Positions 12,602 to 32,000 of a stretch of DNA of 32,000 nucleotides are shown piece after piece; position 1 is the stretch's first letter, and each line of letters begins with the position of its first letter. Position numbers and translations under genes: made by a program. Source of the DNA: Candidatus Saccharimonas aalborgensis (GTDB taxonomy: Bacteria; Patescibacteriota; Saccharimonadia; Saccharimonadales; Saccharimonadaceae); the NCBI RefSeq assembly GCF_000392435.1, contig NC_021219.1, forward strand, positions 510,001 to 542,000. Direction: 5' to 3'. The notes beneath the pieces are model-generated. The model had not been told where the DNA came from. It ran no database searches and saw only the letters and a program-made list of their open reading frames with translations.

Positions 12602-12874
12602 CTTTTGTGTACAATCTGTGAATTGCTTGTGGACCTGTCCTGGTGAGGTTGGGGGATATACTTCCCCAACTAGCGGACCAGTTGTTCGTTTCACGGAAGG
12701 TTGGTGGGGAAAATTGAAGCATTATACTAAAACTCTCTACTCTTTTTCCGATGGTGTGTCCACGCTCCATCCACACAAGATATCTCTTTGGATTGGTGAC
12801 TTTCTCAGCTTTTCCACAGCTACTACTATTAAAGTCACCGTGGTTAGATTTATAAAAAGAAAGGAATAATAGTA
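12602..12874. other. oriC, dnaA-dnaN intergenic part: DnaA boxes, DnaA-trio-like repeat and AT-rich tract
   Basis: 273-bp non-coding gap. TTTTCCACA at 12810-12818 is followed after 1 nt by CTA CTA CTA TTA (12820-12831), then the AT-rich tagatttataaaaagaaaggaataatagtaa. Weaker boxes are CCATCCACA at 12767-12775 and TGGGGAAAA at 12705-12713. Confidence 0.6.
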
Positions 12875-13979: not shown

Positions 13980-15041
13980 ATGATCTCTCATGTTCGAATT
14001 AAACACATTCGCAACCACAGAGATTCCCACTATAATTTTTCTCCCATAACTGTGTTGTATGGAAATAATGGGGTGGGTAAAACAGCAGCCCTCGAAGCAA
14101 TCCACATAGCCCTTATGGGTACAAGCTTCAAGGGAGTCGATAAAGATATCGTACAGCATAAAAAAGAGTGGTATAAAATTGATCTCGTAAGCGACAACCC
14201 ACAAATAACAAGAGCGGTCCGGTATATAAACCAAAAAAAAATATTCACAATCGATTCAAAAATATCAGCCCGACTTGGGGTGAAACAGAAGTTTCCGGTC
14301 GTATTATTTACTCCAGATGACCTAAGACTTATTAGTGGATCGCCAGCGCGACGGCGGCACTATATAGACCAGTTGATATGCCAAACTGAACCCCACTACA
14401 CTAGCATCCTCCGGCGCTACGATCGAGCACTTATGCAGCGAAATAAGCTTCTAAAGGGAGATCGACCGACTCGTGATGCGCTATTTCCATGGAATATCAT
14501 TCTTAGCGATACAGGTTCTCAGATCATTAACTTGAGAAATAAATATCTGGCAATTCTTGATGCATCACTTGAAGAACGCTACAACGAAGTGGCAGGGTCA
14601 GCGAATAGTGTTAAGGTTTTGTATACTCATGGCCCAACACAGACAACAGAATTACTTAGTGCGATCGAAAAATCTTTTGATGTAGATGTTCGTTACCATA
14701 CCACCACAGTAGGGCCACATCGTCACGACTTCACTATTCGCCTCAATCATCACGATGCAGATACGACTGCGTCGCGCGGAGAAATACGAACACTTATTTT
14801 GTCACTAAAATCGACCGAAGCAGGTATGATCGAAAAGTTGAAGAATGTCTCGCCAATAATTCTACTCGATGATGTATATGGAGAACTTGATAATGAGAGG
14901 CAACAGATGTTGCTCGTTTTATTTCGCAACAAACAACTTGTTATTACGTCGACACACCCACTTCAAACAGTACCCGCACAGACCACACAAATCGAGATAG
15001 CCCTATCTCAGACCGATAGTATTGACGGCGATCAAAATTGA
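13980..15041 (+). CDS. recF: DNA replication and repair protein RecF
   Basis: N-terminal IKHIRNHRD...LYGNNGVGKTAALEAI (Walker A), the signature-like ASRGEIRTLILSLK, and Walker B IILLDDVYGELD. Confidence 0.9.
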   Translation: MISHVRIKHIRNHRDSHYNFSPITVLYGNNGVGKTAALEAIHIALMGTSFKGVDKDIVQHKKEWYKIDLVSDNPQITRAVRYINQKKIFTIDSKISARLGVKQKFPVVLFTPDDLRLISGSPARRRHYIDQLICQTEPHYTSILRRYDRALMQRNKLLKGDRPTRDALFPWNIILSDTGSQIINLRNKYLAILDASLEERYNEVAGSANSVKVLYTHGPTQTTELLSAIEKSFDVDVRYHTTTVGPHRHDFTIRLNHHDADTTASRGEIRTLILSLKSTEAGMIEKLKNVSPIILLDDVYGELDNERQQMLLVLFRNKQLVITSTHPLQTVPAQTTQIEIALSQTDSIDGDQN

Positions 15042-15635
15042 GCGCGGAACCCCCGGCGTATTATCGAGAGTGAGCACGACCTGGGGTGAGCCGATAACTT
15101 TCCAAACCCCATTCATTTTTTGTGCAACAGCACGATAATAGCTTGATGGGTTTTGTCGATCCATTCCCTTTGGTGTTAGCACTACCCCAGCCCACTCACC
15201 TTTTTGGTATAGGGTAACACTATCAATCTCATAACCTGCCATGGCAGCGGAATACTGTTTAGTAAGGAGAGAGGTAATAGCCGGCTGCTCAGCAGTAGCG
15301 AGACCTCCAAGGTGTTGAGCAGAATACGACGGGTCAACAGCGACAGTTTCATCCTTTGAAACAGAAAAGCCTATTTTATCTTGTGCTATATCCTTTCCCT
15401 TGGGTATCAGATAATACTGACCTTCTTTTAGTCGTACACTCCCTGCTGACGATAGCTGTGCGATAACACTGGGCTTGTCGCTGTACTCAATATCTTCATA
15501 AACATCAATACCCGAGACGGTGGACGCAAAAGTAAAAGATATCGTATGGTAACGCAATAACTCACGAACACCCAGGGCGACCCCAATAACTAAGACAATA
15601 CTAATAATACTTGCGATGATTCTTTTTTGCGTCAT
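15003..15635 (-). CDS. Hypothetical bitopic membrane protein, last gene of the T4SS-like operon
   Basis: 210 aa with a single N-terminal TM helix (IIASIISIVLVIGVALGV) and a soluble remainder. Its start overlaps the upstream stop in ATGA (15632-15635). I recognise no family. Confidence 0.6.
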   Translation of the reverse strand: MTQKRIIASIISIVLVIGVALGVRELLRYHTISFTFASTVSGIDVYEDIEYSDKPSVIAQLSSAGSVRLKEGQYYLIPKGKDIAQDKIGFSVSKDETVAVDPSYSAQHLGGLATAEQPAITSLLTKQYSAAMAGYEIDSVTLYQKGEWAGVVLTPKGMDRQNPSSYYRAVAQKMNGVWKVIGSPQVVLTLDNTPGVPRSILIAVNTIGLR

Positions 15636-16273
15636 GGCGTAAAAGGATTTCTTTCATTATTTATTACAATTTTGTAATCAACAGGGTTGTACCCCCAGTT
15701 CGATATCTGATTTATGGCTGCGTTTCGATAGACGGCCGGCGCTGAGATAGTAAGAATGATCGAACTCCCCGATTGATCAGAAGGATCATTCTTGTACCCG
15801 ATAGTATATAACATTGTGTTATAGGGGAGGTTATCGACAATTGGGTTTTTACTACGAAACGTATCACCCTCATGATTTATTTTATTACCTATTACGCCCT
15901 CGACTATCAAATACTCTCCTGTGTTTGTTTGATACCACTTCTTGGCGTCGTCGCTCTTTGGTTCAAGCATCGCTGTGATAACCTGTTCGTCACTACTCTT
16001 GCCTTCTTTTACCTCATAGAGTTGTACTGATTGAGAGAACCCATCTTTTGTCACGGTAACACGGTGAGTGCCTGGGGTCAGATAAAGGGTTTTATCAGAT
16101 GTCTTTAAACCATCCACCATCACTGTTGAATCTTTTGGTGCAACATACACACCAATAGCCTGTTTGCCCGCCCTAGTAATAAGAGGAACTAAGAAGATGA
16201 TACACACCCCAAGCAATAGCACTACACTGGTGGCGATTATAGTACGAACCGTTAAAAATCGTTGAGTTTCCAT
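15632..16273 (-). CDS. Bitopic membrane protein with a PEGA-like domain
   Basis: N-terminal TM helix. VYVAPKDSTVMVDGLKTSDKTLYLTPGTHRVTVTKDGFSQS matches the PEGA beta-sandwich pattern. A strong SD AGGAGG (16284-16279) lies 5 nt before the ATG. Confidence 0.65.
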   Translation of the reverse strand: METQRFLTVRTIIATSVVLLLGVCIIFLVPLITRAGKQAIGVYVAPKDSTVMVDGLKTSDKTLYLTPGTHRVTVTKDGFSQSVQLYEVKEGKSSDEQVITAMLEPKSDDAKKWYQTNTGEYLIVEGVIGNKINHEGDTFRSKNPIVDNLPYNTMLYTIGYKNDPSDQSGSSIILTISAPAVYRNAAINQISNWGYNPVDYKIVINNERNPFTP

Positions 16274-16282
16274 ACCATCCTC

Positions 16283-17653
16283 CTACTTTTTCCTATACCA
16301 GGTGAAACCATCTTTTGTCAAACTTTCGCGACCCGCCATTGGTGCCCTTTCACAGAGTGAGGCAGAAGCAATTTTACTGTCGAACCCACTTATAGTCCCG
16401 ACGTAAATAAATGTATGACCACTTGAAATTGCAACATCACCCGGCTTTAGCGTGGCGGTATCGATAGACGAAGCGGTTCCGAGGTTTTGCCAGTGGGCGT
16501 CGAGCCAATTCTTTTGAGTATCGGTTGGACCAGCACCATCAGACAACTTCCCATTATAGTTATAACTTGTGTCCCAACCGCTATCGATAACGAGCCTTGT
16601 TACAAACGCCCCGCAATCAACAGCTACTCCATCAACCACATCTCCCCTCTTGGCACAAAAATCCACCGTTGCTCCAATATACATACCTATTTTTTGTGCC
16701 TTGTCAGCAGCAGTGGCATACTCTGGTTTGCGAGTGGTGTAGGGGGGTGTGTGATATTGGGGCCAAGCGTACGCGAGCGTTGCGGCAGAGAGATCACCGG
16801 GGGTAATAGGTGAGTCAGGAGAGCAGGTACCGGTTGACTGAGTAGTTGTACCTCCGGTTGTCGTACTTGCTCCTGCCGATGGAGTAGTTCCTTTGAGTTC
16901 GTCATATATTTTTTGACCATTATCGGCACGCTTTTGAGCATGAGCTGGACTTTGGTCCAATGGTCGTTCAAAGCTATAAAGCCAAACATCAGAGGCTGCC
17001 TTTATACTTGACGCCGCCTTGATAGAGTCCCACTCACTTGCGCCACTAACGCCATACCCAGAACGAACCGTTCGTGTCGTGCTTTCTTGGTAGAGAAAAT
17101 CGAGCTCAACGGCAAGAATCTTATCATTGTCCTCAACTGATATACCTTCGGGAACATACCCATTTGCTTTGGAGGTTGCTCCACCGTACTGTTTATTAAA
17201 ATACTTTGCCATAATGTCGGGGTATTTGGAGGTAAGTGCGTCGACAATCGCGGTTCTGCGCGGCCCCGTCCACTGAACGATCCCATAACCGCCCTTAGTA
17301 AAATCATTTATGTAAGTACCCTCTTGGCGAAATGGGCTAAAACCACTCTCTTGTTGAATATTTCCCAAAATACCGGCAGCCTGTTGGTCACTTAGGCCCT
17401 TTGAAATAAAGTAATTCCACATTTTTGCTACGTTACCACTACCGGAAACTTGGCTACCAGAGCTTGAGCTGCTACATGACGTGTTACCACCCTTTTGATA
17501 GATAAAAATGTTGTTTGTTGAGTAATCTGCCTCACTTAACGCCGAGACAGGTACACCAGAGACGGTGATAAGCAAACTAAGGAATAGTGTTCGAAGCCAA
17601 ACACCGGCGCGAAACAACACAGAGGTTTTAGTAGGGACTCTTTGGTAGTGCAT
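16283..17653 (-). CDS. Secreted two-domain cell-wall hydrolase (lysozyme-like N-domain plus NlpC/P60-like C-domain)
   Basis: N-terminal signal/anchor. AAGILGNIQQESGFSP...GGYGIVQWTGPRR resembles the phage-tail-lysozyme type muramidase family. The C-terminal VDCGAFVTRLV ... GDVAISSGHTFIYVG has the Cys/His spacing of NlpC/P60 peptidases. SD AGGAGG at 17665-17660. Confidence 0.75.
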   Translation of the reverse strand: MHYQRVPTKTSVLFRAGVWLRTLFLSLLITVSGVPVSALSEADYSTNNIFIYQKGGNTSCSSSSSGSQVSGSGNVAKMWNYFISKGLSDQQAAGILGNIQQESGFSPFRQEGTYINDFTKGGYGIVQWTGPRRTAIVDALTSKYPDIMAKYFNKQYGGATSKANGYVPEGISVEDNDKILAVELDFLYQESTTRTVRSGYGVSGASEWDSIKAASSIKAASDVWLYSFERPLDQSPAHAQKRADNGQKIYDELKGTTPSAGASTTTGGTTTQSTGTCSPDSPITPGDLSAATLAYAWPQYHTPPYTTRKPEYATAADKAQKIGMYIGATVDFCAKRGDVVDGVAVDCGAFVTRLVIDSGWDTSYNYNGKLSDGAGPTDTQKNWLDAHWQNLGTASSIDTATLKPGDVAISSGHTFIYVGTISGFDSKIASASLCERAPMAGRESLTKDGFTWYRKK

Positions 17654-18035
17654 CGAGCACCTCCTGTGGTATTTTTTTCCGTTGCTCAGAGGATAATTTA
17701 AACGGATTGTATGAAGTAAACCCTCTTTCGTTTGGCTGTTTATCCTCTAGGAGACGATATATCTCGTAGGGTTCATCGGGTTGACTAGATTTGTAGGTGA
17801 CGATATACCATCCGTTTTGAAATGGTTCGACAGACACAACCCTCCAATCCTCAAAACGCTCAGAAATAAAGGGCCTGAGTCCCTGCACAAACTCCGCGTC
17901 AGTATAGGGGGGGAGCTTACCTAAAATACTCTCACGATCTACAGCCGACTTTGAGGAAAAATATACTCCTACTAACACTGAAATTACAAGAATACACACC
18001 AAACCAGTCGCAATAATAACTACTCGTCGATTCAT
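17628..18035 (-). CDS. Small bitopic membrane protein (hypothetical)
   Basis: 135 aa with an N-terminal TM helix (VVIIATGLVCILVISVLVGVYF). Its ATG follows the upstream TAG stop directly (18038-18033). I recognise no family. Confidence 0.6.
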   Translation of the reverse strand: MNRRVVIIATGLVCILVISVLVGVYFSSKSAVDRESILGKLPPYTDAEFVQGLRPFISERFEDWRVVSVEPFQNGWYIVTYKSSQPDEPYEIYRLLEDKQPNERGFTSYNPFKLSSEQRKKIPQEVLDALPKSPY

Positions 18036-21000
18036 CTAGGTGCCTCTCCTAAAATCACTCAGTAGCGACGTTATATTTGTTGTTTTTACCGATGTCCAGC
18101 CGAGCGTGTTTGGATCAACCCACCCCTTGTAAGTTTGTCCCCAGTTATTCTCAACAAACGAAGCATCGCGCACATGGCCGTCATTGAGAACCTTGTTATT
18201 GCCAAGGTAGATGACGACATGTCCGCAACTACTTTTTGTGTAGAGGAGTATAGCGCCCTTTGGAGGGTTTCGATCAGTGTGCTGCTTGTCGGGGTTTTGA
18301 TTCCAAAGATCTATCGCACATGCGTAACCGTAGCGGGTTGCTGTTCCATGCCAGATATAGGATGTAACTCGCGCACATTGGCCAGCTCCCTCTAGGGTAT
18401 CTCCCACAGCCTGTTCACTCGCCATTGCGTTATAATAGACGTTGTCAAAACCGACCACTTGGCCATTATCGGTGAATTTTCCAGTACCAGCACCAATTGC
18501 AGTTGACGTGGACTGGCTCGTTGCCGCACTCGTAGTATCGGTTGCAAGCGGCTTAATGCCCGTCTCCATGCCGTCGACGACTGATTGGTCAATCAAATAT
18601 AACCTGAACATTTTCACCATTGTCGTGGCATTTTTTTGCTCATCATAGCATTCGGCAGGAAGTCGCTTCTCATCAGGCACAACTGTGCTGATTGCTTTTT
18701 CGTTTGCACCATCAATACATGTCTTCTTGAATGTATCAAACGCCGAACCAGCAACGGGATTACCGTCATTGTCGACATAGTTATTGTCTTTCATAAAGGT
18801 CGCTACAGACTCTGGCGAGGTGTTTTCTAGCATATTTACGTCATTGAAACCATAGATGACATTACAATAGGGGTCAGTAGCGAGACCCTTTTCTTTTACA
18901 TCAGGATCATCGCATTCATCCATTAACTTCTCCCTATCTGATATGTCTGCCATAGCGGTATCAAGTTGAACGCCGCCAGACCATGAAAAGAGCGACGTTG
19001 GCAAGTGACCGATAAGCTGTGGGTACTTAATAATATTGAACTTCGAAAAGAAATTACTGAGCGAGCTTGCGACTACACTTCCCGTAGAATAGGGGTTGTT
19101 AAAATCAAAGGTACCAGCAGCGGTGTTTTGATCTACAGAGTACTGAGCGATGTATGACTCGTTATAGCCGGCAAATGCAAGGTAACTTTTTCTGCTGAGT
19201 GGAGTGAGGGCCCGTGAAAGTGCGATACCGCCCGCAGCGGCACCCGCACCCATGGCGAGAGTATCAAAGGCAGCAACACCATTTTCCTCACCGGTAATGA
19301 CGGTGCCCGTGGCCAAGTGAGCAATATACGGAACGAAATATCGCTCGATGATGTAGCCAATGAGGAAAGATCCGACAAGTGAGGCGGCAAACTTGACAAG
19401 TTGCTTGCCCGCGTCTTTCAAGGTAGATTTGATGGCATCTTTGGCTAATTTTTCTGTAATTCTTTTGACGACCTGCTCGACGATCTTATTTATGAGTACC
19501 TTTGCACTCCCTCTTGCGGCAGCCATTGCGCCTTCTACTGCGACATTGCCCGTTCCTAGCGTTGTGATAGCAAGTATTACCTGGATAATAACCGATAAAA
19601 GAGCGGTCATGAATTGAAAGGCACCAGTAGTGGCAACATTACACATATCATTAAAACCGAGACTCTTCCCCGTTCCAGGCATTGTAAATGATAACTTATT
19701 CATGAAAAGAAGATACGCTACGAGAGCTGATAAAATGGCACCACCCGTAATGCCTGTTTGGATAGGCGTGTTAGTTGGCTTATCATACGCGCTCCAACTA
19801 TACGCAGTCGAATCCCCGAAATTATCTCCGTTTGCATCTGGTCTCTGCAGGATTTCCATCGGTATAGACACATCACTCGTTGCCGCATCCCCCGCCATTA
19901 CCATTTCGCCAGACGAAATAATTTGCGTTGCCCAACGCATTGCTACAGCGATACCCGCAAATTTAGCGAGATCAACAATAATCTTTGCATATTGATGCCC
20001 TTGGCACATCTCAGTAACAATTGCCGCAGGATTTAATGCACCGTTAATACCCTCCCATACCTTTGATCCAAGCTTTTTTTCGTAGGGTGCATGGTTCATT
20101 ATCTCTCCCATATCGCTTGGAGTACCTGCTGGATGACCATTTTCCAGGTCAGTCTTTAGGGTCTGTTTTTCTTCTTCTACGGCATCACTAAAGTCACCCC
20201 CATTTTGCCCCTGAGTGAGATCCTCGCCACCAGTTTCGGCTTCAGCTAGATTTTTTGATACTTCTTTGGCGCGAGTTTTTGGATCATCATCTTCACTTGT
20301 GGTTGTCCACTTCGGGTCACGTATAAGGCGCTTATCCTTGAAAAATGTGCTCGCAACCTTGTCTCGCCAGACGGCGGCCCGCGATGGATATACCCCCCGC
20401 ATAGTTTCTCTAAAGGTAGTATCGTTTGCAAGCTTGGTGCGAAAGTCTTTAGCACTAATTCGCTCCTGGACAAACTTACCATCATCCTTCATAGTCGATA
20501 ACCATTTCACACCAGAGTAACGCCCATCTTTATCTGGATTTACATAGTTACCATCCTTATCAATGAGTGAATAGCCAGCCTCATTTAATTTCCTTGCTTG
20601 ATCTTCACTCATAGAGCTATAGCGGCAAAACATCTTAATTCCCTGACTACACTTACCAGCCGTTGCGGTGTCGGTACCGCCAAAGATTCGGGATAGTAAT
20701 AAGCCATGAGAACGTGGCTCCTGTACCGAAGACATCGTGTCTACTTTGTCTTTTATGATCTGAACCGCATGCATAAGTCCCACGGGGCCGAGTGAAAAGA
20801 AGCCGCCTACACCCACAGCGCCAGCGAGAACGCCGAGAGGACCTTTCTTTTTGAGGAAATCAAAAACCTTTGCTTTTGTTGAGCCACCACCAGGCTTTGT
20901 GGGCTTGGTGACGTTATTGAGATAGTTGGCACTTGGGTTTTGCTCAGCAGCTCGGGCAATGTCAGTAGGATTATCTGCATTTGCAATAGCAGAGGAATTA

Positions 21001-21119
21001 CTCTCTGACTTCGTTGGTTCACCGTTAGATAATTGCTCTTTCTCTTTTAGGCTGCGAGCAGCAGGGCTAAAGTCATAGGCTTTATCAATTTCATCTTCAC
21101 GTTTTAGGGATGACGGCAT
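18036..21119 (-). CDS. Large polytopic membrane protein with a C-terminal CHAP-type peptidoglycan hydrolase domain
   Basis: 1027 aa with hydrophobic helices near residues 95-120 and about 455-640. The C-terminal GQCARVTSYIWHG ... SSCGHVVIYLGNNKVLNDGH matches the CHAP Cys/His pattern (GQC ... GHV). It sits directly downstream of virB4, as the hydrolase genes of monoderm T4SS loci do. Confidence 0.75.
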   Translation of the reverse strand: MPSSLKREDEIDKAYDFSPAARSLKEKEQLSNGEPTKSESNSSAIANADNPTDIARAAEQNPSANYLNNVTKPTKPGGGSTKAKVFDFLKKKGPLGVLAGAVGVGGFFSLGPVGLMHAVQIIKDKVDTMSSVQEPRSHGLLLSRIFGGTDTATAGKCSQGIKMFCRYSSMSEDQARKLNEAGYSLIDKDGNYVNPDKDGRYSGVKWLSTMKDDGKFVQERISAKDFRTKLANDTTFRETMRGVYPSRAAVWRDKVASTFFKDKRLIRDPKWTTTSEDDDPKTRAKEVSKNLAEAETGGEDLTQGQNGGDFSDAVEEEKQTLKTDLENGHPAGTPSDMGEIMNHAPYEKKLGSKVWEGINGALNPAAIVTEMCQGHQYAKIIVDLAKFAGIAVAMRWATQIISSGEMVMAGDAATSDVSIPMEILQRPDANGDNFGDSTAYSWSAYDKPTNTPIQTGITGGAILSALVAYLLFMNKLSFTMPGTGKSLGFNDMCNVATTGAFQFMTALLSVIIQVILAITTLGTGNVAVEGAMAAARGSAKVLINKIVEQVVKRITEKLAKDAIKSTLKDAGKQLVKFAASLVGSFLIGYIIERYFVPYIAHLATGTVITGEENGVAAFDTLAMGAGAAAGGIALSRALTPLSRKSYLAFAGYNESYIAQYSVDQNTAAGTFDFNNPYSTGSVVASSLSNFFSKFNIIKYPQLIGHLPTSLFSWSGGVQLDTAMADISDREKLMDECDDPDVKEKGLATDPYCNVIYGFNDVNMLENTSPESVATFMKDNNYVDNDGNPVAGSAFDTFKKTCIDGANEKAISTVVPDEKRLPAECYDEQKNATTMVKMFRLYLIDQSVVDGMETGIKPLATDTTSAATSQSTSTAIGAGTGKFTDNGQVVGFDNVYYNAMASEQAVGDTLEGAGQCARVTSYIWHGTATRYGYACAIDLWNQNPDKQHTDRNPPKGAILLYTKSSCGHVVIYLGNNKVLNDGHVRDASFVENNWGQTYKGWVDPNTLGWTSVKTTNITSLLSDFRRGT

Positions 21120-21145
21120 AGTATTAGTATATCCCCTTTATACAA

Positions 21146-22981: not shown

Positions 22982-23859
22982 TAGATGATCCCCCCTGTTT
23001 GGGTCGGTGTGGGGAGTGTGCCGCCCTTACGGACATACGTTGCAGTAACGTTAGTAAAGTCGCCGAGCGGCTCACGCACGGCAGTATCGGGGTTATATAC
23101 GTTATAATACAACTCACCTAATTCTTTGGTTTTGAGTTGAACTGCGGTTATCCCCACTTGCATGAGGCCATTGATAACCGCATCGACGCGATTTTTTATC
23201 TCATCCTTTGCTTTTTCGTAGGTTGCTTTGTCGATTTTTACTACAGAACTTGATTGATTGGCCGAGGGGATAATTTTTCCAAAGAACCCCTTGCCCTTTT
23301 CGACAACGTTGCTGAGATCTCCAGCGGGTGAGAACGGGACAATTACAAAAAAGCTTTTATCCATAATATTTGCCTCTTGTGCTAGCACATCGATAAATTG
23401 GACATAATCGTCCATGAGGACATTGAGGAGCATATTTTCCTGAGTGCGGCGAATTCCCTCTAGCTTATCGAGGTAGGGACCAATGTCGACGCGCTGTGAA
23501 CGGATAAATATTTGGATGGGAAAATACAGTGCATTGAGAAAGTTCTGATAACTAAACTCAACCCCCTCTCGTTCGCGCGAGCTCATGAGATCAAAATTAA
23601 TCGACTTACAGGCGATAACTGCCCGGAAACTTCCGTCGGCCATGATGATCATATTTTCACGAATCTCAGATAGTAGCAGACTATTCTGGGTGCTGACCGG
23701 ACGTTTTGGCTGCTGGCCAGGGGTTTTTTGATTTGACTGCGGAAGCTGTGGAGCAACTGGGGGCTGAAATTGTTGCTGAGAAGCATCAACAACACCAATA
23801 TTCGGTGCTGCTTGCTGGGGTTGAACTGGACTTTGTTGGTTGTTTGGTGGCACTCCCAC
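22981..23859 (-). CDS. VirB4 N-terminal-domain-like protein with a Pro/Gln-rich leader (separate ORF)
   Basis: IRENMIIMADGSFRAVIACKSINFDLMSSREREGVEFSYQNFLNALYFPIQIFIRS follows the pattern of the first domain of monoderm VirB4 proteins (DG..y..v.....iNf.L.s..E......F...L....iQ). Its stop overlaps the next start by 1 nt (TAGTG). Confidence 0.6.
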   Translation of the reverse strand: MGVPPNNQQSPVQPQQAAPNIGVVDASQQQFQPPVAPQLPQSNQKTPGQQPKRPVSTQNSLLLSEIRENMIIMADGSFRAVIACKSINFDLMSSREREGVEFSYQNFLNALYFPIQIFIRSQRVDIGPYLDKLEGIRRTQENMLLNVLMDDYVQFIDVLAQEANIMDKSFFVIVPFSPAGDLSNVVEKGKGFFGKIIPSANQSSSVVKIDKATYEKAKDEIKNRVDAVINGLMQVGITAVQLKTKELGELYYNVYNPDTAVREPLGDFTNVTATYVRKGGTLPTPTQTGGII

Positions 23860-23882
23860 TCCCTTTATGCCAAGCTATCTAT

Positions 23883-24920
23883 CTAGTGCAGCGAGATGAC
23901 AACTTCTTGTTCGTCGTCACGCTTTTTCTTGCGACGTTCAGCCTCGTGAGCAATCGTCTCGATAGATAAATCGGTGTTATTTGCAAGATTAATTATATCA
24001 GGATCGACCCCGTTTCCGCTAGTGGTTGGAGTAGTATTTGTTTCGGGATTTACTATAGGAACTTGCGGCTGAACTGGTACCTGAGGCGGTACGGTTGGAG
24101 GCGGAGGTGACTGGGCGACGAGGGGCTGGATAACACTTTGATGAATATTAGAGGGATAAGGACTTGCCTGGTGGAGAGCCGCCAGATCACTCGCCGTTAC
24201 GGCTGCTGCCTGCGCAGGAGCAATTGTCAATGAGGCGTATGGGTCAGCGACGGGTGGGGTCGGGGGTGACACCTGTGTTTGCACAGAAGGTGTTACTTGT
24301 GTGGCTACATTTGAAGGCACAGTTTGAGGCGCGCGCATATGTTCGACAACTTCTTGACGACGACGAGCGTCGGACTGAGAGATCATAGTATCAATCGACT
24401 GCGCGATACCTCCTTGAGTATCCATGATATCGACAGTTTGCTGCGCCTCAAGAAACACATCGCTCACCATATTGCTGCCACTACCAGGTGTTGCCGCATG
24501 ACGAATGGCCCACCCCTCAGTATCAGCAATATTCGCGAGGTACGAGAGCCGACGTTCTGCTTCTGTCTGCGATAGGTCCTTGGTGCGCTGGACCTCAACA
24601 ACCTTTGGTGCAGTAATCTCTACGAGTGATTCTATACCATCGGGTATCCAGAGGCGTCTGCGCGGCTTGAGATAGTACGACAACAGTGCTGCCATGTATA
24701 TCTCCATCGGCTGGTCTTTGCGCAGTGGCAAAGCAAGTGCACCAAAAAAGACGATGATCGGTAGCGGAATAATCGCCAGAGGGACAAATAATTGCGCGAG
24801 TCCCCAGGCGAGGGTAATACTTATAGCAACAATGATGAGGTAGATAAATTGGCGAAAACTAAAGGGACCAATGAGTTTATCGTCTGCTTCAACATCTTGA
24901 GCTACTTTATAGACGGCCAT
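23883..24920 (-). CDS. PrgI/VirB3-like membrane protein with a long C-terminal extension
   Basis: N-terminus MAVYKVAQDVEADDKLIGPFSFRQFIYLII followed by two TM helices, the PrgI-family (VirB3 analogue) pattern, directly upstream of virB4. At 345 aa it has a Pro/Gln/Val-rich tail, versus roughly 120 aa in the PrgI-type proteins I recall. Confidence 0.65.
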   Translation of the reverse strand: MAVYKVAQDVEADDKLIGPFSFRQFIYLIIVAISITLAWGLAQLFVPLAIIPLPIIVFFGALALPLRKDQPMEIYMAALLSYYLKPRRRLWIPDGIESLVEITAPKVVEVQRTKDLSQTEAERRLSYLANIADTEGWAIRHAATPGSGSNMVSDVFLEAQQTVDIMDTQGGIAQSIDTMISQSDARRRQEVVEHMRAPQTVPSNVATQVTPSVQTQVSPPTPPVADPYASLTIAPAQAAAVTASDLAALHQASPYPSNIHQSVIQPLVAQSPPPPTVPPQVPVQPQVPIVNPETNTTPTTSGNGVDPDIINLANNTDLSIETIAHEAERRKKKRDDEQEVVISLH

Positions 24921-24928
24921 ACAAACTC

Positions 24929-27900
24929 CTACGGTGTGCCACCACTACCTGGCGTATTTCTATCAGCTAAACCGTCTCTAATCTGGTCAGCATGAGCTCT
25001 AATCTGTTCTGATTCGTAATCACTCAAGAATCTTCCACCTACTTTACCGACAGAACCGTCTTTTGTGACTGACTGCTGTCCGGCAACATGGCGGGCCTTA
25101 CCATCAGCACCAACGTTAACTAAATCTCCTATATCAGAGTAGCCACCTGATCCGCTTGAGCTACTTGTTGCTGACGACGTTGCACTTGAGGGGACTGCAG
25201 GAGCAGGATTTGCAGGAGCAACTTTAGCACCGAGACTGGCATGGGGGATATTGAGTACGCCCGGGGTACCTACTGCAGCTCCGCCGGCTGCACCACTCGC
25301 TGGGGGTGCGCTAGGGCCAGGACTTGCGCCGCCTCCTGATGGAGGTGGGGGTGGTGCTTGATTTGGCATCGGCATTTGGCCAGCACCACTCCCAGAAGTC
25401 CCCGTAGCAGCCGCTGCCGCTCCGGCAGGGGTACTTGGGCCGTTCGTCCCTGCTACACCGCGCAGAACATTTCTTTTATTCTCATTAAGATTTTGCCAAA
25501 CATTGGGATTGTCCATCATACCCTGTGCTCGTGCTGCATCCAATCCCCCCGAGCTAACAGCAGCTTTAAGCTGGACTTCACTCTGACCCGCAAGCTCAGC
25601 ATCCGTAAGTCCGGAGTAGGTACCCGCAGCACCGTCAAAACTCGACAGCGTGCCCGACGAGTAGCTCCATGAGTTCACGGCGGCATCACGACTCTTTACA
25701 CCAGCCGCACTAAGGTCAGACATCAACTTTTGGACCGTTGTACTGCCTTTATCAAAGCCCTTTTTACCTTCAGCGTTCACAATGCCCTTATGGAGATTAT
25801 CCATTCCCTTCGCACCGCCCGCCAACAATATTGACTGGGCAGCCCTCGCACGTACGGTGTCTCCTTCGGCAATAGCTTTTTCATATACTTTTTGGGCCTC
25901 GTCTAGTTTTTGCTCTTCTTTCCATCCTTTTTGCATCCGTATCGCCTCATCGGCAACTTCCTTTTTCTCCATCTCGGCCGCCACACCGGCACCATGGGCT
26001 GAGAGTTTGCCACCATAATTCTTGCCAGTGAGTCTGTTGATACCCTTATAATATTTCGCACCCAGACCGTTCCCATGCCCACCGAGCGTCTGAGCTCGTT
26101 TGAGTTGTTGGTTACGCTGACGCTGCTGGCTCATAGCGCCAAGCATAGAGGTGTCGTTCCATTTCTTGCCAATGCGGCTATTTGCCTTGGAGCTGGCTTT
26201 GCTGAGCATAGCACCTACTGATCCGGCGGCTGCCAGTGCATTTTTGAGGAGAGGCAGGACAATGAGAAGCGGAATGGCAGAGACACCGAGCGCTCCAACT
26301 CCCAGCGCTGTTTTCGTGGCAGTCGCGTTTGCATCAGTCCCACTAACACCGTTTGCGGCAGCAGATAGTATCGTTGAGGCTAATTTGCTCGCGCCAAACA
26401 CTAACGCTACGATAGGAAATAGCAGGAGAAGTGTAGAAAATAACTTGTACCATTTTTTGAACAAATTCTCAGTATTCGGCAGTAGGTATGCGACAAATGC
26501 GAGCGGCGAGATGACGATGAGTAGTATGATAAGCGCTTGCCGACCAATGAGTATCAATACGGTCAAAGCAAGGGCGAGGAGTGCCGCGAGTACGACTGGG
26601 GTAGATACAGACAGGAGTAATGCGATTGCCGCAACTCCAAGACCAGTCATCCCCAGGATACCGCCGATCGTGTCGAGCCACTTATTCGATGAGGACGCTG
26701 CCGCTGCGGCTCCCGGGTCGGTTACGGTGACCGACAGTAGACTACTGAGGCTATATCCCAGCATATTACTGATATCGACAGCCAACTGGCATACATAATA
26801 CGAGACGTTGACAAGGATTGCCGCCACGATGAGCTTAGGAAGCATCTTCTTTATACCATAGTTTGTTATACCAATGCTCGATATCTGTGAGAATATGATA
26901 ATCAAAAAGGCAAGGACGAACGCTGCGTTTGCATAGTTGCGGAATTGCTGCCATGCAGTAAAGGTACCCCCGTTTTGGTCAGTTACCTCCTTGTTGACTA
27001 CGAGTGCCATACTAATGTAATTTTGTGCACCATCATTGACGGTTGCCATGAAATTCATTATGGGGCAGACGAGCCAGCCAATACTCTTGATGACACAAGT
27101 GGGTTTTGAGCCATTTGTGCTCCCGGCAGCATTTGGGTCTGATGCGTATTTTTGTCCATACTTACATGCGGTGTTCTCTGCGGCTTTTGTTGCGGGTGGA
27201 TAAGTGGTATCACAAAAAGCAGGGTCAGATTTATTTTTTAGTCCGTCTTCACACGCGGTCCTTTCTGCCTGAGATAACTTATACTTACTCGCACAGGTTT
27301 GAGCGGCGGTCGGGTCATTCTGGACGTAGGTAAGGTAATTGTTAGCATATTTGTCGGCGAGATTTGAAAGCGATTCACAGTTTTGCTGACCGCCCCCTTC
27401 GTTATCTATTTCACTTGAGTTTGATCCTGATATTGGAGCAAGAACAGGGATCTGCTTTCCTCTACCCAATTCAGTTCTATAGAATTTTTCAATTAGCTGG
27501 GTATTGTCATCACTTGGAGCGTGGATGATATAGCCAGTATCGCCCTTTTCCATTGTAGCTGGGTCGTATGTAGCCTCATTGGTCACCTTACAGGCAGTTT
27601 TAAATGACTTAATGAAATAGTTATACTTAACATACCCCTCTGGCGTAAATGGATTGGCGCCCACCTTTTGTTTAATGGTGTTAAAGAAATCGCGCTCATG
27701 CCCCTGTATTATCCAGTCACCATCGCCAGTTCTGCAGTCACTATTGTTCTCGCGTTTTACCCCGATATCGCAAATAAATTCTTTTCCAGATGTCCAGCCG
27801 AGAAATCCAAGTGCTTCTCTCATCTTTGATCCATCATTGCAGTTTCTCTCCCCACCCGGGTCAATGAATGTTCCGATTTGCGTGTCTTTTGATCTAAAAA

Positions 27901-28108
27901 AAACAAAATCATTAACACTCGAATCAGCCTTACCGCTCGCATAAGCAAGACACGAATAGACGTAACTGGCATATGCCCAGGCTTTACCCTTATCGTCTAT
28001 AGAGCTGCTTGTGTATGAAAGTGCAAAAAGTGAGGGGGCGGTGAGTATAGGAGTAAATAGGGTTATAATAACCCCTCCCAGTACAGTAAACAATCCAAAT
28101 CGTTTCAT
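24929..28108 (-). CDS. Giant VirB6/TrbL-like polytopic membrane protein, paralogue 1
   Basis: 1059 aa. It has a signal peptide and an N-terminal ectodomain of about 340 aa with 12 Cys. The multi-TM core contains RQALIILLIVISPLAFVAYLLPNTENLFKKWYKLFSTLLLLFPI (a TrbL/VirB6-like loop-helix pattern). The C-terminal tail of about 400 aa ends in a Pro/Ala/Gly/Ser low-complexity segment (about 25140-25460). Confidence 0.7.
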   Translation of the reverse strand: MKRFGLFTVLGGVIITLFTPILTAPSLFALSYTSSSIDDKGKAWAYASYVYSCLAYASGKADSSVNDFVFFRSKDTQIGTFIDPGGERNCNDGSKMREALGFLGWTSGKEFICDIGVKRENNSDCRTGDGDWIIQGHERDFFNTIKQKVGANPFTPEGYVKYNYFIKSFKTACKVTNEATYDPATMEKGDTGYIIHAPSDDNTQLIEKFYRTELGRGKQIPVLAPISGSNSSEIDNEGGGQQNCESLSNLADKYANNYLTYVQNDPTAAQTCASKYKLSQAERTACEDGLKNKSDPAFCDTTYPPATKAAENTACKYGQKYASDPNAAGSTNGSKPTCVIKSIGWLVCPIMNFMATVNDGAQNYISMALVVNKEVTDQNGGTFTAWQQFRNYANAAFVLAFLIIIFSQISSIGITNYGIKKMLPKLIVAAILVNVSYYVCQLAVDISNMLGYSLSSLLSVTVTDPGAAAAASSSNKWLDTIGGILGMTGLGVAAIALLLSVSTPVVLAALLALALTVLILIGRQALIILLIVISPLAFVAYLLPNTENLFKKWYKLFSTLLLLFPIVALVFGASKLASTILSAAANGVSGTDANATATKTALGVGALGVSAIPLLIVLPLLKNALAAAGSVGAMLSKASSKANSRIGKKWNDTSMLGAMSQQRQRNQQLKRAQTLGGHGNGLGAKYYKGINRLTGKNYGGKLSAHGAGVAAEMEKKEVADEAIRMQKGWKEEQKLDEAQKVYEKAIAEGDTVRARAAQSILLAGGAKGMDNLHKGIVNAEGKKGFDKGSTTVQKLMSDLSAAGVKSRDAAVNSWSYSSGTLSSFDGAAGTYSGLTDAELAGQSEVQLKAAVSSGGLDAARAQGMMDNPNVWQNLNENKRNVLRGVAGTNGPSTPAGAAAAATGTSGSGAGQMPMPNQAPPPPPSGGGASPGPSAPPASGAAGGAAVGTPGVLNIPHASLGAKVAPANPAPAVPSSATSSATSSSSGSGGYSDIGDLVNVGADGKARHVAGQQSVTKDGSVGKVGGRFLSDYESEQIRAHADQIRDGLADRNTPGSGGTP

Positions 28109-28156
28109 AGTGCCTATGATTATTTAATCATGTCTAGTATAAAAATACTATTGAAT

Positions 28157-28186
28157 CAAAAGTCCCCTTGATTAAGAGGACTTTTG
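28157..28186 (-). terminator. Hairpin downstream of the lipoprotein gene (possible terminator or processing site)
   Basis: CAAAAGTCC (28157-28165) pairs with GGACTTTTG (28178-28186), a 9-bp stem with a 12-nt loop. The U-run is inside the 3' arm rather than a separate tail, so termination efficiency is uncertain. Confidence 0.4.
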
Positions 28187-28210
28187 ACATGTATGACGAT
28201 AAGAACCTAA

Positions 28211-29092
28211 CTAACTGGGGGTATTGGGAAGTTTTTTAAATCCACTATTACCTTCGGGGGTTGTAGAATATAGCGTCCACTCAAATCCCTCTCCTCCACC
28301 GACTTTAGGAAATGATGTACCAATGACTTGCCATTGACTAACTGTGGTATCACCCTTGGCATTCAGGGTCTTCCGCCACTCATTAGCCGTATTATTAAAA
28401 CTAGATGATTCCTCTCCCCATGCTGTGCTGTACAAATACTCATCACTGCCACTACGGTCTTTGATATTACCACTGAAGTCTAACATTGCTTGCTTGGCGC
28501 GCAAGTATTCTTGAGAATCACAGGAAGAGTATACGATAGCGAGCATTCTTATTGCATCAAGTCGGTTCTCGGGGCGAACCGTGCCGTCGGGATTAGTGAG
28601 GATATGCCACGCTGTTGCCTCTTTATTGACCTTTTGAACAATAATCGATTGCGCATCGGAGCTACTTGAAGGGTTACCATAATTCGCAAACGGTACAAAT
28701 TTTTCACTAGTTAGTCTCATTAATTTAATTTGTTGCTCCGCATAGGGGCCATAAACACGAAACAGAAACTCGCCATAACGTTCTCGTTGCGGTCCTTTCA
28801 GATTCTCAAATGGTGAGATATCGTCGCTAGCATGGATATCTTTAATGAACTTCTGATCCTCTGCTGAGAGCGCTTTGTAGGCTTCGCTGTCAATTATTGT
28901 TTTTGGATTGAGCTTATCAACTGTCTGAGTAGTTTTCTCGGGGGTGCTCGCACCAGGCGTCTGTGAGGCGCTGGCGGTTGGGCGGTTGTCAGCCGAAACG
29001 GTTTCTGGACCACACGCAGTTGTGCCGAGGGCGACAGTGGTCGCAAGAGCGAAGCCAGCGCCGAGTCGTTCAAAAGTAGATCGTTTTACCAT
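28211..29092 (-). CDS. Lipoprotein (hypothetical) embedded between the two VirB6-like genes
   Basis: I chose the start at ATG 29092 (MVKRSTFERLGAGFALATTVALGTTAC). This gives a lipobox-type signal ending in Cys, followed by a Thr/Ser/Pro linker. SD AAGGAG at 29110-29105. The track start at 29146 lies inside the promoter. Confidence 0.75.
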   Translation of the reverse strand: MVKRSTFERLGAGFALATTVALGTTACGPETVSADNRPTASASQTPGASTPEKTTQTVDKLNPKTIIDSEAYKALSAEDQKFIKDIHASDDISPFENLKGPQRERYGEFLFRVYGPYAEQQIKLMRLTSEKFVPFANYGNPSSSSDAQSIIVQKVNKEATAWHILTNPDGTVRPENRLDAIRMLAIVYSSCDSQEYLRAKQAMLDFSGNIKDRSGSDEYLYSTAWGEESSSFNNTANEWRKTLNAKGDTTVSQWQVIGTSFPKVGGGEGFEWTLYSTTPEGNSGFKKLPNTPS

Positions 29093-29134
29093 GATAATGA
29101 GTTTCTCCTTATTGAAATTATCACGAATGTATAC

Positions 29135-29163
29135 ATTATACACCAAAGGTATGAAAATGTCAA
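29135..29163 (-). promoter_or_regulatory. Consensus sigma-70-type promoter for the lipoprotein gene
   Basis: On the minus strand: TTGACA (29163-29158), an exact 17-nt spacer, then TATAAT (29140-29135). It starts 22 nt after the upstream gene's stop and lies about 40 nt before the ATG at 29092. Confidence 0.65.
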
Positions 29164-29184
29164 TATACCATAAGCATCGGTGTG

Positions 29185-32000
29185 CTAAATGACGATACCG
29201 GCATCGCGCAGTGCTTTTGCCATGACCTCGCGAGACGACTCTGGTGTGTCGCGACCAACCGTCGGACTGGTGAGGATATCGCGCGTACCATTGAGCATAC
29301 CCGCAAAGTTCTTGTCGAACTTGTCGTCGAAGGTAGAGACAACTTTTTGGTAGCGCGGATCACTGGTACCACCATACATCCCCTCGAAGAGCTCAAACAT
29401 TGCGCTGCGGTGCCGGGCAAACTCGGCTTGGTCGGCGGGGTCAGCACTCCGCTTGAGTGAGCCAAGCTTGTACAAGATATCAAGTGCTTCAAAGTTGGCA
29501 CCTGCCAAGTTATCGGTCTTGATACGGCCCTCAAAGATCTGGCGCATCGCGTGCATATTTGTACTATCAATACCATTGAAGTTACCTTTGACAATTTCGT
29601 TGAAAGTAACGTCATTGATAAATGGTGCAAGGCGTTGGATGCCCGAACCGATCGCCTCACTCTTGACCGAGAGTCGATGGGCGTAGTTGACACCCTTGCG
29701 GTAGACAACATTGCCGGAGCTATCAAGTTTGACACTGCCGTCGGGGTTGGTGTCGACAACCTTTGACCCAGTTTCGTTGAGGATGGCCATCTTTTGAGCG
29801 TACGAGCCCTCTTTGAATTGGGTAACGATCGCCGCCTCTTTGACATATTCGTCACCAGCATCAAATTCGTGAACGTTGCCACTGTCGTCGACGGCCCGAA
29901 TAACTGTCCCCTTACCCTTTGCCGCAAGTGATTGGTATTGGCCGCTTTCGAGTTTAAAGTGTTTCATCAATTCACCAGCCGCAGCGGCTTGCTTGCCCCA
30001 CTCACTGCGTCCTTCAGAAATTGCACCAGCCAGGACATTGTCTTTGTGACCAATTCCGGTCGCATACTCATTGAGTGACCTGCCGTCAATAGCGCGGACC
30101 TGACCGCTAAAGATTGGCTTACCGTCAGCATCGCGGCGAATCACGCCGTGCTCGTCGCGCTGGTGGACTTGGCCATTGCTGAGTAGTTCGTCATTGATTT
30201 GGTTCTTGAGTCGGTGTTCGGCCTGAGATTTTCGGATAGCGGTGAGAGAGATTCCCTCGGCTGTCTCAAAGGCAGTGGCTGCGAGTTGCTGCATCGCAGG
30301 GGTGGCAATAGGTGCGTGGCCCACGCGCAGCTCATCGTAGGCCGCTTCAATTTGTTCGCCGGCAAGTTTGGCCCGATCGCCCGCCAAGCGGACACTCAGT
30401 TCCTTTTCAAGCTCTGATGCGTCTGTTTTTATCTTGACGTGCCAGTTTTCGTCCAAACTATGCTGGATACGCTGTTTATCCCGTTCAGTTTGGCGAGTGG
30501 CGGTATCAATGCGTCGACCTTCCATCGAGTCGTTAAAGAGGTTGTCATAGGTAGATTCGTTTACTTTTTTCCATGCTTCACGACGACGACGGTTATAGTT
30601 GACGTTACGTGTGGTACGATTTGCCCAGTTGTTACGACCCTTGCCGGCGAGTACGCGGGCTTTTTCTTGCTCGGCCCGCTCCTTTGCCCAGTTGCGAGTA
30701 CGATCCATAATGCCAGCTTTTGGATTATTGACCATACCGGCAATGCGCCCAAGGAGTGATCCGCTAAACTTAATGAGCATTGGTGTAATAGCAACCGGTG
30801 CTATCTGAACGGCCATACCGAGGATAATGAGGTTAAATGAGTCGGCGTTTTGTATGATGGCCATGCCGGCAAGTTGTGAGCCACCAAATATGACGGCAAA
30901 TATCGGGAACATCAGGAGCATTGTAGTGAGTAGCTCGCGCCATTTTGTGAAGTATTTTTCGGTATTTGGGAGGATGTAGGCGACAAATGCTAGCGGTGAG
31001 ACGATGATGAGAACAGTGATGAGTGCCTGTCGAGCTGCCATTACCAGGAGTGCGACGAGAACAGCCATCAATATCCCAACCAGGATCGGTATCAAGAGGT
31101 AGAGGGCGCCAGGGAGTGAACCGCCGAGGACGACAAACTTAGCGTAGAGTCCCAAGGCAGTGACCGCTGTTCCTCCTGAGAGGACAGCACTTGCAACACT
31201 TGACCAGCTGAGTGCAGTGATGTTGCCATAGTTTTCGGTAGTGCTCATGGCGTTGAAAATACCAAGGAACATATCGTGAATCGCATAGCCAAGATAATTT
31301 GAAACGTCTACTGCCAGTGCGCAGATCCAGTATGAGATGTTTACGAGAACGGCGGTGATAATGAGGCGAGGCAACATTTTTTTGATACCGTAGTTGCTGA
31401 TACCGACATTTGATATCTGAGAGTAAATAACAACCAGAAATGCGACGACGAAGAGAGCGTTGGCGATATCTCGTACGATTACCCACATCCTGTAGAGAGA
31501 GTTAGTAGTCGAGGTTTGGACTGGGCGGACGGTGAGAAATGACGACAACGCGTTATAGAGGTGGTCCATGCCGCTTGCTAAGAAATTGACGATCGGACAG
31601 ATAAACCAACCCAGGCCATTAGTGACTGATCCACTACAGGTGCTGGGGGTGGGAGAACTGGTGTTGTTTGTAATGCCGTTGACGATAGCAACGGCGACAG
31701 GTGGTGAAGGATTGCTATACTGGCCAGAATTGAAATCATACACAATGTACTGTGCGCTCGTTGCCTTGGTGGGATCTTGAGCTGTGTCAATGATAATCGC
31801 CTCACGTTTGTTGGTTTGAGGATTTTGGAATTCAAAGACGTGCGTTCCGACCGGTAATTGGCGGCTATCACCAGCTTGAATATCGGCAGTTTGGGTGAAA
31901 CTGCCGTTATTGTAGGTGATGGTGTTTCCGTTACGGACCGCATCGGCGGCGCTAACAGGGGCACTAAGCAAGAGATTGCAGGAAAAAACAGCCACAAGGA
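29185..32000 (-). CDS. Giant VirB6/TrbL-like polytopic membrane protein, paralogue 2; N-terminus runs off the window
   Basis: More than 936 aa. Its core aligns with paralogue 1: GWFICPIVNFLASG vs GWLVCPIMNFMATV; ISNYGIKKMLPRLIITAVLVNISYWICALAVDVSNYLGY vs ITNYGIKKMLPKLIVAAILVNVSYYVCQLAVDISNMLGY; RQALITVLIIVSPLAFVAYILPNTEKYFTKW vs RQALIILLIVISPLAFVAYLLPNTENLFKKW. The visible N-terminus ...VAVFSCNLLLSAPVSA/ADAV looks like the end of a signal peptide. The C-terminal domain is non-membrane and about 490 aa. Confidence 0.7.
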   Translation of the reverse strand, partial: LVAVFSCNLLLSAPVSAADAVRNGNTITYNNGSFTQTADIQAGDSRQLPVGTHVFEFQNPQTNKREAIIIDTAQDPTKATSAQYIVYDFNSGQYSNPSPPVAVAIVNGITNNTSSPTPSTCSGSVTNGLGWFICPIVNFLASGMDHLYNALSSFLTVRPVQTSTTNSLYRMWVIVRDIANALFVVAFLVVIYSQISNVGISNYGIKKMLPRLIITAVLVNISYWICALAVDVSNYLGYAIHDMFLGIFNAMSTTENYGNITALSWSSVASAVLSGGTAVTALGLYAKFVVLGGSLPGALYLLIPILVGILMAVLVALLVMAARQALITVLIIVSPLAFVAYILPNTEKYFTKWRELLTTMLLMFPIFAVIFGGSQLAGMAIIQNADSFNLIILGMAVQIAPVAITPMLIKFSGSLLGRIAGMVNNPKAGIMDRTRNWAKERAEQEKARVLAGKGRNNWANRTTRNVNYNRRRREAWKKVNESTYDNLFNDSMEGRRIDTATRQTERDKQRIQHSLDENWHVKIKTDASELEKELSVRLAGDRAKLAGEQIEAAYDELRVGHAPIATPAMQQLAATAFETAEGISLTAIRKSQAEHRLKNQINDELLSNGQVHQRDEHGVIRRDADGKPIFSGQVRAIDGRSLNEYATGIGHKDNVLAGAISEGRSEWGKQAAAAGELMKHFKLESGQYQSLAAKGKGTVIRAVDDSGNVHEFDAGDEYVKEAAIVTQFKEGSYAQKMAILNETGSKVVDTNPDGSVKLDSSGNVVYRKGVNYAHRLSVKSEAIGSGIQRLAPFINDVTFNEIVKGNFNGIDSTNMHAMRQIFEGRIKTDNLAGANFEALDILYKLGSLKRSADPADQAEFARHRSAMFELFEGMYGGTSDPRYQKVVSTFDDKFDKNFAGMLNGTRDILTSPTVGRDTPESSREVMAKALRDAGIVI

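Follow-up and report, generated by a model that had tools for sequence, protein, structure and literature searches.

The closest described relative of the locus reported here is the T4SS (type IV secretion system) of Candidatus Southlakia epibionticum ML1, which is essential for epibiotic growth, is closest to Gram-positive conjugative systems, requires its pilins and shows no recognisable coupling protein or relaxase (Wang 2023, Cell; PMC10633639). The locus had already been described across Saccharibacteria, with nutrient or effector translocation proposed and an analogy to Ptl drawn (McLean 2020), and a later study reported the FATA ancestry of its VirB4, a repertoire of TrsD, PrgI, VirB6 and pilins, the near absence of relaxases and the proximity of dnaA (Quinonero-Coronel 2025). 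A 2025 review lists the system within the T4SS superfamily and calls it the first T4SS found essential for its own bacterium, likely key to the epibiotic lifestyle of Patescibacteria. In the published work it is interpreted as non-conjugative and possibly pilus-forming. We analyzed 32,000 nucleotides (nt) of the Candidatus Saccharimonas aalborgensis chromosome (NC_021219.1, positions 510,001 to 542,000; hereafter the window), in which eleven co-directional minus-strand open reading frames (ORFs), designated genes A to K, form a continuous run from the window edge at 32000 to position 15003. This locus is the known Saccharibacteria T4SS and thus a rediscovery, probably one already contained in published surveys. 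With a probability of roughly 0.8, we regard it as a core-genome, vertically inherited T4SS that serves the epibiotic host interface and not conjugation. An earlier note on this DNA had reached a composition, context and functional guess that prove right in substance and were already in print; its description of the apparatus as uncharacterised was outdated, given the three named studies. What may be of use here is the assignment of each S. aalborgensis gene to its counterpart in the ML1 locus, whose genetics are known, and the observation that its VirB4 is more conserved than DnaA, besides the apparent separate transcription of gene B and the cassette swapping in gene G described below.

Correspondence with the S. 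epibionticum locus

The S. aalborgensis genes match SEML1_0004-0019 of strain ML1 gene for gene, from the recF side (K) through A and onward through a pilin array, Hsp20, a ComF-like phosphoribosyltransferase and tRNA-Ser. The correspondence extends to the 1-nt overlap between the TrsD-like and VirB4 genes, gene E being represented by SEML1_0009, and the published domain annotations agree with the AlphaFold2 models of J and K from the window. Four differences were found. The window has an extra 135-residue gene, H, with no counterpart in ML1, where SEML1_0007 and SEML1_0006 abut; G ends in an NlpC/P60-like module, whereas its orthologue SEML1_0007 ends in a DD-peptidase; I is shorter (456 versus 643 residues) and has one lysozyme domain instead of two; and the signal of B is of the lipoprotein type, in contrast to the twin-arginine (TAT) type in ML1.

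Through this map, the transposon sequencing (Tn-seq) results of ML1 can be read onto the window. Orthologues of C-K and the pilins were called essential, the orthologue of B being the sole non-essential gene of the cluster (Wang 2023; PMC10633639). Essential genes include SEML1_0010 (D), SEML1_0007 (G), SEML1_0006 (I; two lysozyme domains and a cysteine proteinase) and SEML1_0005, annotated in the same way as its orthologue J, while SEML1_0013 (A), assigned to TrbL/VirB6 by Foldseek, was non-essential at P0 and essential at P1-P2 (PMC10633639). SEML1_0011 (C) is annotated as a "type IV secretion system protein" and SEML1_0004 (K) as prealbumin-like plus BT0923-like (PMC10633639). The published genetics of the orthologous locus agree with the non-conjugative role in host interaction proposed in the earlier note.

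Components of the apparatus

Gene F encodes a VirB4 ATPase that matches NCBIfam NF045971 (CD1110 family) at 380 bits (cutoff 325, E = 2e-113) and Pfam PF19044 (E = 1e-29), with intact Walker A (GAGKS) and Walker B (LIVDEAW) motifs. The match covers only positions 167-733 of the 752-position CD1110 profile, leaving positions 1-166 unmatched. The adjoining gene E matches TrsD (NF041427) at 22 bits (E = 1e-4), far below the cutoff of 200, and carries a precomputed Pfam annotation as TraC-like (PF26593). Taken together, these profile matches suggest that E corresponds to the detached N-terminal domain of VirB4, so that E and F would make up a split ATPase. Next to the split VirB4 genes lies gene D, which combines two N-terminal transmembrane (TM) helices with a Pro/Gln-rich tail and matches PrgI (PF12666) at 39.7 bits (cutoff 27, E = 7.5e-10). 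The VirB4 and PrgI/VirB3 assignments made earlier by inspection are therefore borne out by scores above the cutoffs.

Monoderm (MPF-FATA-like) ancestry of the system is supported. Conjugative T4SSs of the MPF-FATA type, namely those of CTn2 (CD1110), pCF10 (Prg/Pcf), pGO1 (Trs) and ICEBs1 (Con), share with the window a CD1110-family VirB4, PrgI and a muramidase plus cysteine peptidase like CwlT/PrgK, together with a putative TrsD-like detached N-domain and polytopic proteins that are probably VirB6-like, and likewise have no VirB7/9/10 homologues. Unlike them, the S. aalborgensis locus has no type IV coupling protein (T4CP), relaxase or adhesin, carries a VirB2-like pilin array and two extended VirB6-like paralogues, and is fixed beside oriC; in the relative tested, the system is required for growth. 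Pilins are normally absent from Gram-positive T4SSs, and the divergent pilin array just outside the window therefore speaks against calling the machine "minimal" and purely "monoderm-type", as had been done. The T4SSs Bordetella Ptl, Brucella VirB and Helicobacter pylori ComB similarly do without a coupling protein and relaxase; Ptl and VirB translocate proteins, and ComB imports DNA. However, they are diderm systems with a VirB7/9/10 outer-membrane core, none of which is present at the window locus, and their sequence relationship to it is limited to VirB4, VirB2, VirB3 and VirB6.

The two VirB6/TrbL-like proteins A and C are paralogues, with TM cores 41% identical over 316 residues (E = 2e-50). 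Within the window lie 936 of the 944-962 residues of A, whose full length was taken from two contigs (L001 and L007) carrying identical proteins. In A, a signal/TM segment and an extracellular N-domain are combined with a core of roughly five TM helices and with a C-terminal domain that is hydrophilic and some 500 residues long; C has six or seven TM segments and an Ala/Pro/Gly-rich C-terminal domain. C matches Pfam TrbL weakly, at 16.2 bits against a cutoff of 25.9. Across the family, 14 of 41 orthologues of A and C match TrbL (best E = 3e-6), which is the sole recurrent family among the 41. Support for the earlier VirB6/TrbL-like reading of both genes is weaker than was implied: it comes from part of their orthologues, and the window's own proteins fall below the cutoff or give no match. 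The TM architecture of A and C would suit a channel protein of this kind. For A (L007:6036-8924) the sources disagree: the precomputed annotation gives TrbL_3 (PF19590), yet hmmscan against the current Pfam-A returned nothing at E <= 0.01.

Two membrane-associated proteins carry wall-hydrolase modules. Gene I encodes a signal/TM segment, a lysozyme domain (PF18013, 102.9 bits, E = 2e-29; weak match to phi29 gp13 lysozyme) and a C-terminal Cys/His papain-like peptidase. PF18013 occurs in each of the 24 orthologues, which keep C347 and H413 almost without exception. In the window's own I, the C-terminal domain had no Pfam match even at E = 1, NlpC/P60 and CHAP included; it was assigned as a peptidase because of the conserved Cys and His and because a few orthologues match CHAP, NlpC/P60 or C39. 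Orthologues of I also gain modules in different species, namely Amidase_3 (6/24), glucosaminidase (3), GH43, GH3, M23 and Exo_endo_phos (EEP nuclease/phosphatase; alignment A7).

Gene G consists of a conserved trunk of about 850 residues, which has some four TM helices and eight Cys that are invariant or nearly so (>=90%), followed by a C-terminus that is borderline for NlpC/P60 (18-22 bits, cutoff 23) and contains QC and GHVVIY motifs. Of the three cell-wall hydrolase types named earlier, the lysozyme is therefore clear and NlpC/P60 borderline (22 versus 23 bits), whereas CHAP was not called by Pfam in any window protein. The trunk family comprises 438 cluster representatives at 50% clustering. 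Pfam modules in 41 representatives of the G family were M23 (15), EEP (11), VanY (4), CHAP (2), NlpC/P60 (2), Amidase_3 (1) and glucosaminidase (1). The 11 EEP-bearing representatives have one to three such domains after the trunk and ahead of a terminal M23 peptidase.

The remaining small proteins are bitopic. In the AlphaFold2 models, a TM helix is joined in J (pLDDT 86) by a PEGA/transthyretin-like beta-sandwich and, besides a helical hairpin, by a small domain of beta-beta-alpha-beta type; in K (pLDDT 89) it is joined by a prealbumin-like beta-sandwich and, at the C-terminus, by a helix plus four-strand domain. J scores 20.3 bits against PEGA, just under the cutoff of 20.8; for K, a single-sequence search found 4 homologous proteins and more were reached by alignment-seeded searches. 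A VirB8-like fold was considered for both and rejected: Foldseek comparison of the models with the Protein Data Bank (PDB) returned transthyretin/PEGA-type beta-sandwiches only, and no VirB8 or PrgL. One weak match, to a chain of an F-type outer-membrane core (7oko_3; E = 0.02, probability 0.57), was treated as noise. Nor did sequence or profile searches with J, K, B, G and the A/C family return any meaningful PDB chain. H, with one TM helix, belongs to no family found in Pfam or NCBIfam and is lineage-specific, with a homologue in 1 of 80 related loci; both H and B are essentially invisible to BLAST in related loci.

Gene B, located between the two VirB6-like genes, carries a lipoprotein-type signal, MVKRSTFERLGAGFALATTVALGTTAC; the start chosen by the NCBI annotation pipeline (PGAP) gives 293 residues (contig L001). 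It had no match in Pfam, NCBIfam or PDB sequences. An iterative hidden Markov model search retrieved 45 positional orthologues between two VirB6-like genes; the family is highly divergent, and each of the 45 members carries a lipoprotein or TAT signal and a Pro/Thr-rich linker. The positional orthologue in ML1, SEML1_0012, is non-essential and is annotated as NTF2-like (ECOD e4ec6, TraM of pIP501; Wang 2023, PMC10633639). By this analogy, B is a candidate VirB8/TraM-like (NTF2-like) component. Gene B is preceded by a sigma-70 consensus promoter with a 12/12 match, the only perfect one among the 23 promoter-like sites of the region, and followed by a hairpin that appears terminator-like. The 107-nt stretch between B and C (the 102-nt spacer plus the B stop codon) has a minimum free energy of -27.4 kcal/mol (z = -4.4; 0 of 200 shuffles equal), and the hairpin was missed by a strict terminator scan. 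From these features, B looks like an independently expressed, fast-evolving insert, dispensable in the case of its ML1 orthologue. The combination of promoter and terminator-like hairpin around B is a side observation that may be new.

Conservation, flanks and probable function

VirB4 was scanned with one genome per species, which yielded 552 relatives; the best 80 loci (L011-L090), nearly all from Saccharibacteria, were compared. In about 60 of the 80 species loci, wherever the contig is long enough, the genes follow the order A-(B)-C-D-E-F-G-I-J-K-recF-dnaN-dnaA. VirB4 is 86-91% identical to that of the window across the 80 Saccharibacteria species loci and is more conserved than DnaA, DnaN or RecF of the same genomes. 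Median identities to the window are 88% for VirB4, 75% for DnaA, 66% for E, 63% for DnaN and 53% for PrgI (D; 75 loci), falling to 42% for RecF, 41% for A, 36% for C, 32% for I, 31% for J, 28% for G and 26% for K. A VirB4 that is better conserved than DnaA, combined with fast-evolving exposed parts, marks the machine as part of the core genome, inherited vertically, as opposed to a mobile element. The fixed chromosomal site near dnaA and the conserved synteny agree with PMC12102498. Among the compared loci, two short contigs with VirB4 88-90% identical to the Saccharibacteria protein (L012, JBLMYW010000009.1; L076, JAQBNP010000297.1) come from metagenome-assembled genomes labelled Acidobacteriota and Flaviaesturariibacter, and are most likely binning contamination.

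The region beyond the window edge was viewed for about 6 kb past position 32000, again on the two contigs with identical proteins. Its first genes are five or six VirB2-like pilin genes, transcribed divergently as an array and dissimilar in sequence (PF18895, lowest E = 4e-13), followed by Hsp20, the ComF-like phosphoribosyltransferase, tRNA-Ser, small ORFs and a bestrophin-like gene. Neither among the window ORFs, as the earlier note had observed, nor in the ~6 kb beyond the edge did we find a relaxase, a T4CP (VirD4/TcpA) or an integrase. These flanks bear directly on whether the locus is an ordinary or decayed integrative and conjugative element (ICE), with a relaxase, T4CP and integrase encoded shortly past the window. 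Such an origin could be suspected from the VirB4, which falls in a family typical of Firmicutes conjugative transposons (NF045971), and from the tRNA-Ser gene about 4 kb past the pilin array. However, the ~6 kb past the edge holds only pilins, Hsp20, the phosphoribosyltransferase and small ORFs, the other flank is recF-dnaN-dnaA-oriC, and position and order are conserved in about 60 species with a VirB4 that surpasses DnaA in conservation. Moreover, there is no tRNA gene inside the window, whose composition profile displays no sharp break and no clear foreign-DNA signature, and the orthologous locus is essential in S. epibionticum. On synteny and on flanks viewed to about 6 kb past the edge, the ICE hypothesis was rejected and is regarded as highly improbable; the earlier conclusion that this is not a conjugation element holds.

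For the core-genome host-interface T4SS that we favour instead, the most likely activity would be hydrolase-assisted formation of a conduit and protein export toward the host. From family knowledge and the ML1 genetics, we infer the following steps. The split VirB4 ATPase (E and F) would dock on PrgI/VirB3 (D) and on the VirB6-like channel proteins A and C in the cytoplasmic membrane, and this assembly would drive a channel and a VirB2-type pilus made from the pilin array outside the window. The membrane-anchored hydrolases G and I would cut peptidoglycan to allow wall crossing and, where the two cells touch, probably also act against the wall of the host. The bitopic proteins J and K and the lipoprotein B may form or stabilise the extracytoplasmic part.

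A serious rival is an import device, in which T4SS and pilus operate in the inward direction, as do H. pylori ComB and archaeal Ced, and supply host nucleic acids, nucleotides or other metabolites to a cell unable to produce them. Like ComB-type uptake systems, the locus has no T4CP or relaxase; a review speculates on uptake via the pilus, and a 2026 preprint describes a host-RNA-feeding patescibacterium with tube-like structures at the host interface that are possibly T4SS pili. Other pointers to uptake are matched by contrary evidence: the ComF-like gene beside the pilin array is non-essential in ML1, the matches of VirB4 to CedB/CedD are weak and far below cutoff, and the EEP domains fused to G orthologues in 11 of 41 representatives are missing, according to Pfam, from the window's own G. 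In addition, deletion of comEC in S. epibionticum abolishes competence but not viability, although the T4SS is essential, so the essential role is not ComEC-dependent DNA uptake. We consider import somewhat unlikely. A more modest proposal is that the VirB4 system merely builds a VirB2-type surface filament for attachment, with no cargo. An essential, sequence-divergent pilin array fits variable surface recognition, and canonical T4SS substrate transfer uses a T4CP, none of which is encoded at the locus. Nevertheless, two large VirB6-like proteins and two essential wall hydrolases exceed the needs of a filament, and type IV pili already provide adhesion in these bacteria, making a role restricted to adhesion or envelope assembly distinctly improbable.

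Several points weigh against the host-interface T4SS as we have drawn it. The VirB6 homology of the window's own A and C is weak (sub-cutoff or no match), and a profile search of PDB sequences with the A/C family gave no VirB6. For a VirB8-like part, J and K do not qualify, being unlike VirB8, and B is a candidate by positional orthology only. In ML1 itself, many insertions persist in the orthologues of K and C, which makes their Tn-seq calls ambiguous (PMC10633639). A 2025 survey reported distant t4cp genes in many Patescibacteria, non-essential in relatives, and a T4CP homologue may be encoded elsewhere in the S. aalborgensis genome.

Terminal cassettes of gene G and layout of the window

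The tail of G was found to change independently of its trunk. Oral sister species share 99-100% identity over residues 1-760 of the trunk and end in unrelated tails (CHAP-like versus VanY), classed by comparison with reference tails. Similarly, the G proteins of L045 and L055 share a trunk 93% identical over 793 residues and have unrelated tails. The DNA of L047 matches that of L054 at 98.2% identity as far as a break, bears no similarity to it over about 570 nt, and is 91% identical beyond. Judged by these sequence comparisons, the C-terminal catalytic module of G is replaced as a discrete cassette. This replacement suggests selection on enzymatic specificity, plausibly against host walls. 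Polymorphic toxins and modular endolysins likewise combine a near-identical trunk with a swapped C-terminal catalytic cassette; the trunk of G, in contrast, is no toxin delivery domain but a polytopic membrane protein associated with the T4SS, an immunity gene is not apparent, and most of the modules are wall hydrolases.

The cassette swapping in G may be new. That G acts as a T4SS-anchored carrier of interchangeable host-directed enzymatic "warheads" is a tentative idea that we hold to be unlikely and for which we found no description in the searchable literature; if true, the EEP forms of G might feed nucleotide scavenging. Should the cassette match host wall chemistry, it would be a host-range determinant. 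Cassette swapping offers a concrete, testable handle on host specificity and is the one lead worth following.

Table 1 Positions of the described features (window coordinates unless a contig or locus is named)
Feature	Position	Strand	Description
Gene A	29185..32000 (cut by edge)	-	extended VirB6/TrbL-like polytopic protein, 944-962 aa full length
Gene B	28211..29092	-	293-aa lipoprotein, no family by sequence
Gene C	24929..28108	-	second extended VirB6/TrbL-like protein, 1059 aa
Gene D	23883..24920	-	PrgI/VirB3-like, 345 aa
Gene E	22981..23859	-	TrsD/TraC-like, 292 aa
Gene F	21146..22981	-	VirB4 ATPase, 611 aa
Gene G	18036..21119	-	1027 aa, membrane trunk + NlpC/P60-like module
Gene H	17628..18035	-	135-aa bitopic protein, no known family
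Gene I	16283..17653	-	CwlT-like lysozyme + Cys/His peptidase, 456 aa
Gene J	15632..16273	-	bitopic beta-sandwich protein, 213 aa
Gene K	15003..15635	-	bitopic beta-sandwich protein, 210 aa
recF	13980-15041	+	convergent with gene K
dnaN	12875-13975	+	
dnaA	11234-12601	+	
DnaA-box cluster	11073-11186		four boxes just upstream of dnaA
Consensus promoter of B	29135..29163	-	sigma-70, TTGACA-17-TATAAT; -10 ends 43 nt upstream of the B ATG
Hairpin after B	28155..28188	-	15 bp; starts 22 nt downstream of the B stop, then U-rich stretch
Pilin array	L007:3558-5928; L001:1-801	divergent	starts ~100 nt upstream of gene A
Swapped G cassette	window 18036-18540; L045/L055 and L047/L054 ~14240-14880		~0.57 kb
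EEP-bearing G examples	L036:11929-16635; L088:11942-16513; L019:11865-15965; L081:11863-16689		P0075-P0221

The features are collected in Table 1. The cluster had been described as twelve ORFs in a single operon; eleven were counted, the first of them cut by the window edge. The stop/start junctions given earlier are exact in the sequence: J and K overlap by 4 nt (ATGA at 15632-15635), E and F by 1 nt (TAGTG at 22979-22983), and G and H abut without gap or overlap (TAG|ATG at 18033-18038). A spacing of 8-26 nt elsewhere is correct for four gaps (8, 9, 23 and 26 nt) but not for H and I, where the 3' end of H overlaps the start of I by 26 nt, nor for the flanks of B, with gaps of 92 nt (38 nt with the longest ORF) and 102 nt. 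The consensus promoter and the terminator-like hairpin of B make a single operon doubtful, and the cluster is probably more than one transcription unit. At the opposite end, the 3' ends of K and the convergent recF overlap by 39 nt (15003-15041), leaving no space for a terminator between them.

The setting among core genes beside oriC was recognised correctly, with dnaA, dnaN and recF alongside and four DnaA boxes upstream. One of the four is the perfect box TTATCCACA, and the window as a whole contains 17 DnaA-box matches against 8.1 expected. The region of the box cluster is the probable oriC, about 3.8 kb from the near end of the T4SS cluster (15003). The boxes sit in a stretch of 37% G+C, and a further box lies at 12810 in the dnaA-dnaN spacer. 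The left half of the window consists of core genes, including envelope glycosyltransferases, a succinyl-CoA-ligase-like pair and, on the minus strand, jag/khpB, yidC and rnpA. The succinyl-CoA-ligase-like pair (ATP-grasp_2/Ligase_CoA and CoA_binding/Ligase_CoA; 2715-4638) lies amid glycosyltransferase and GtrA genes, unexpected neighbours in a genome thought to lack the tricarboxylic acid cycle.

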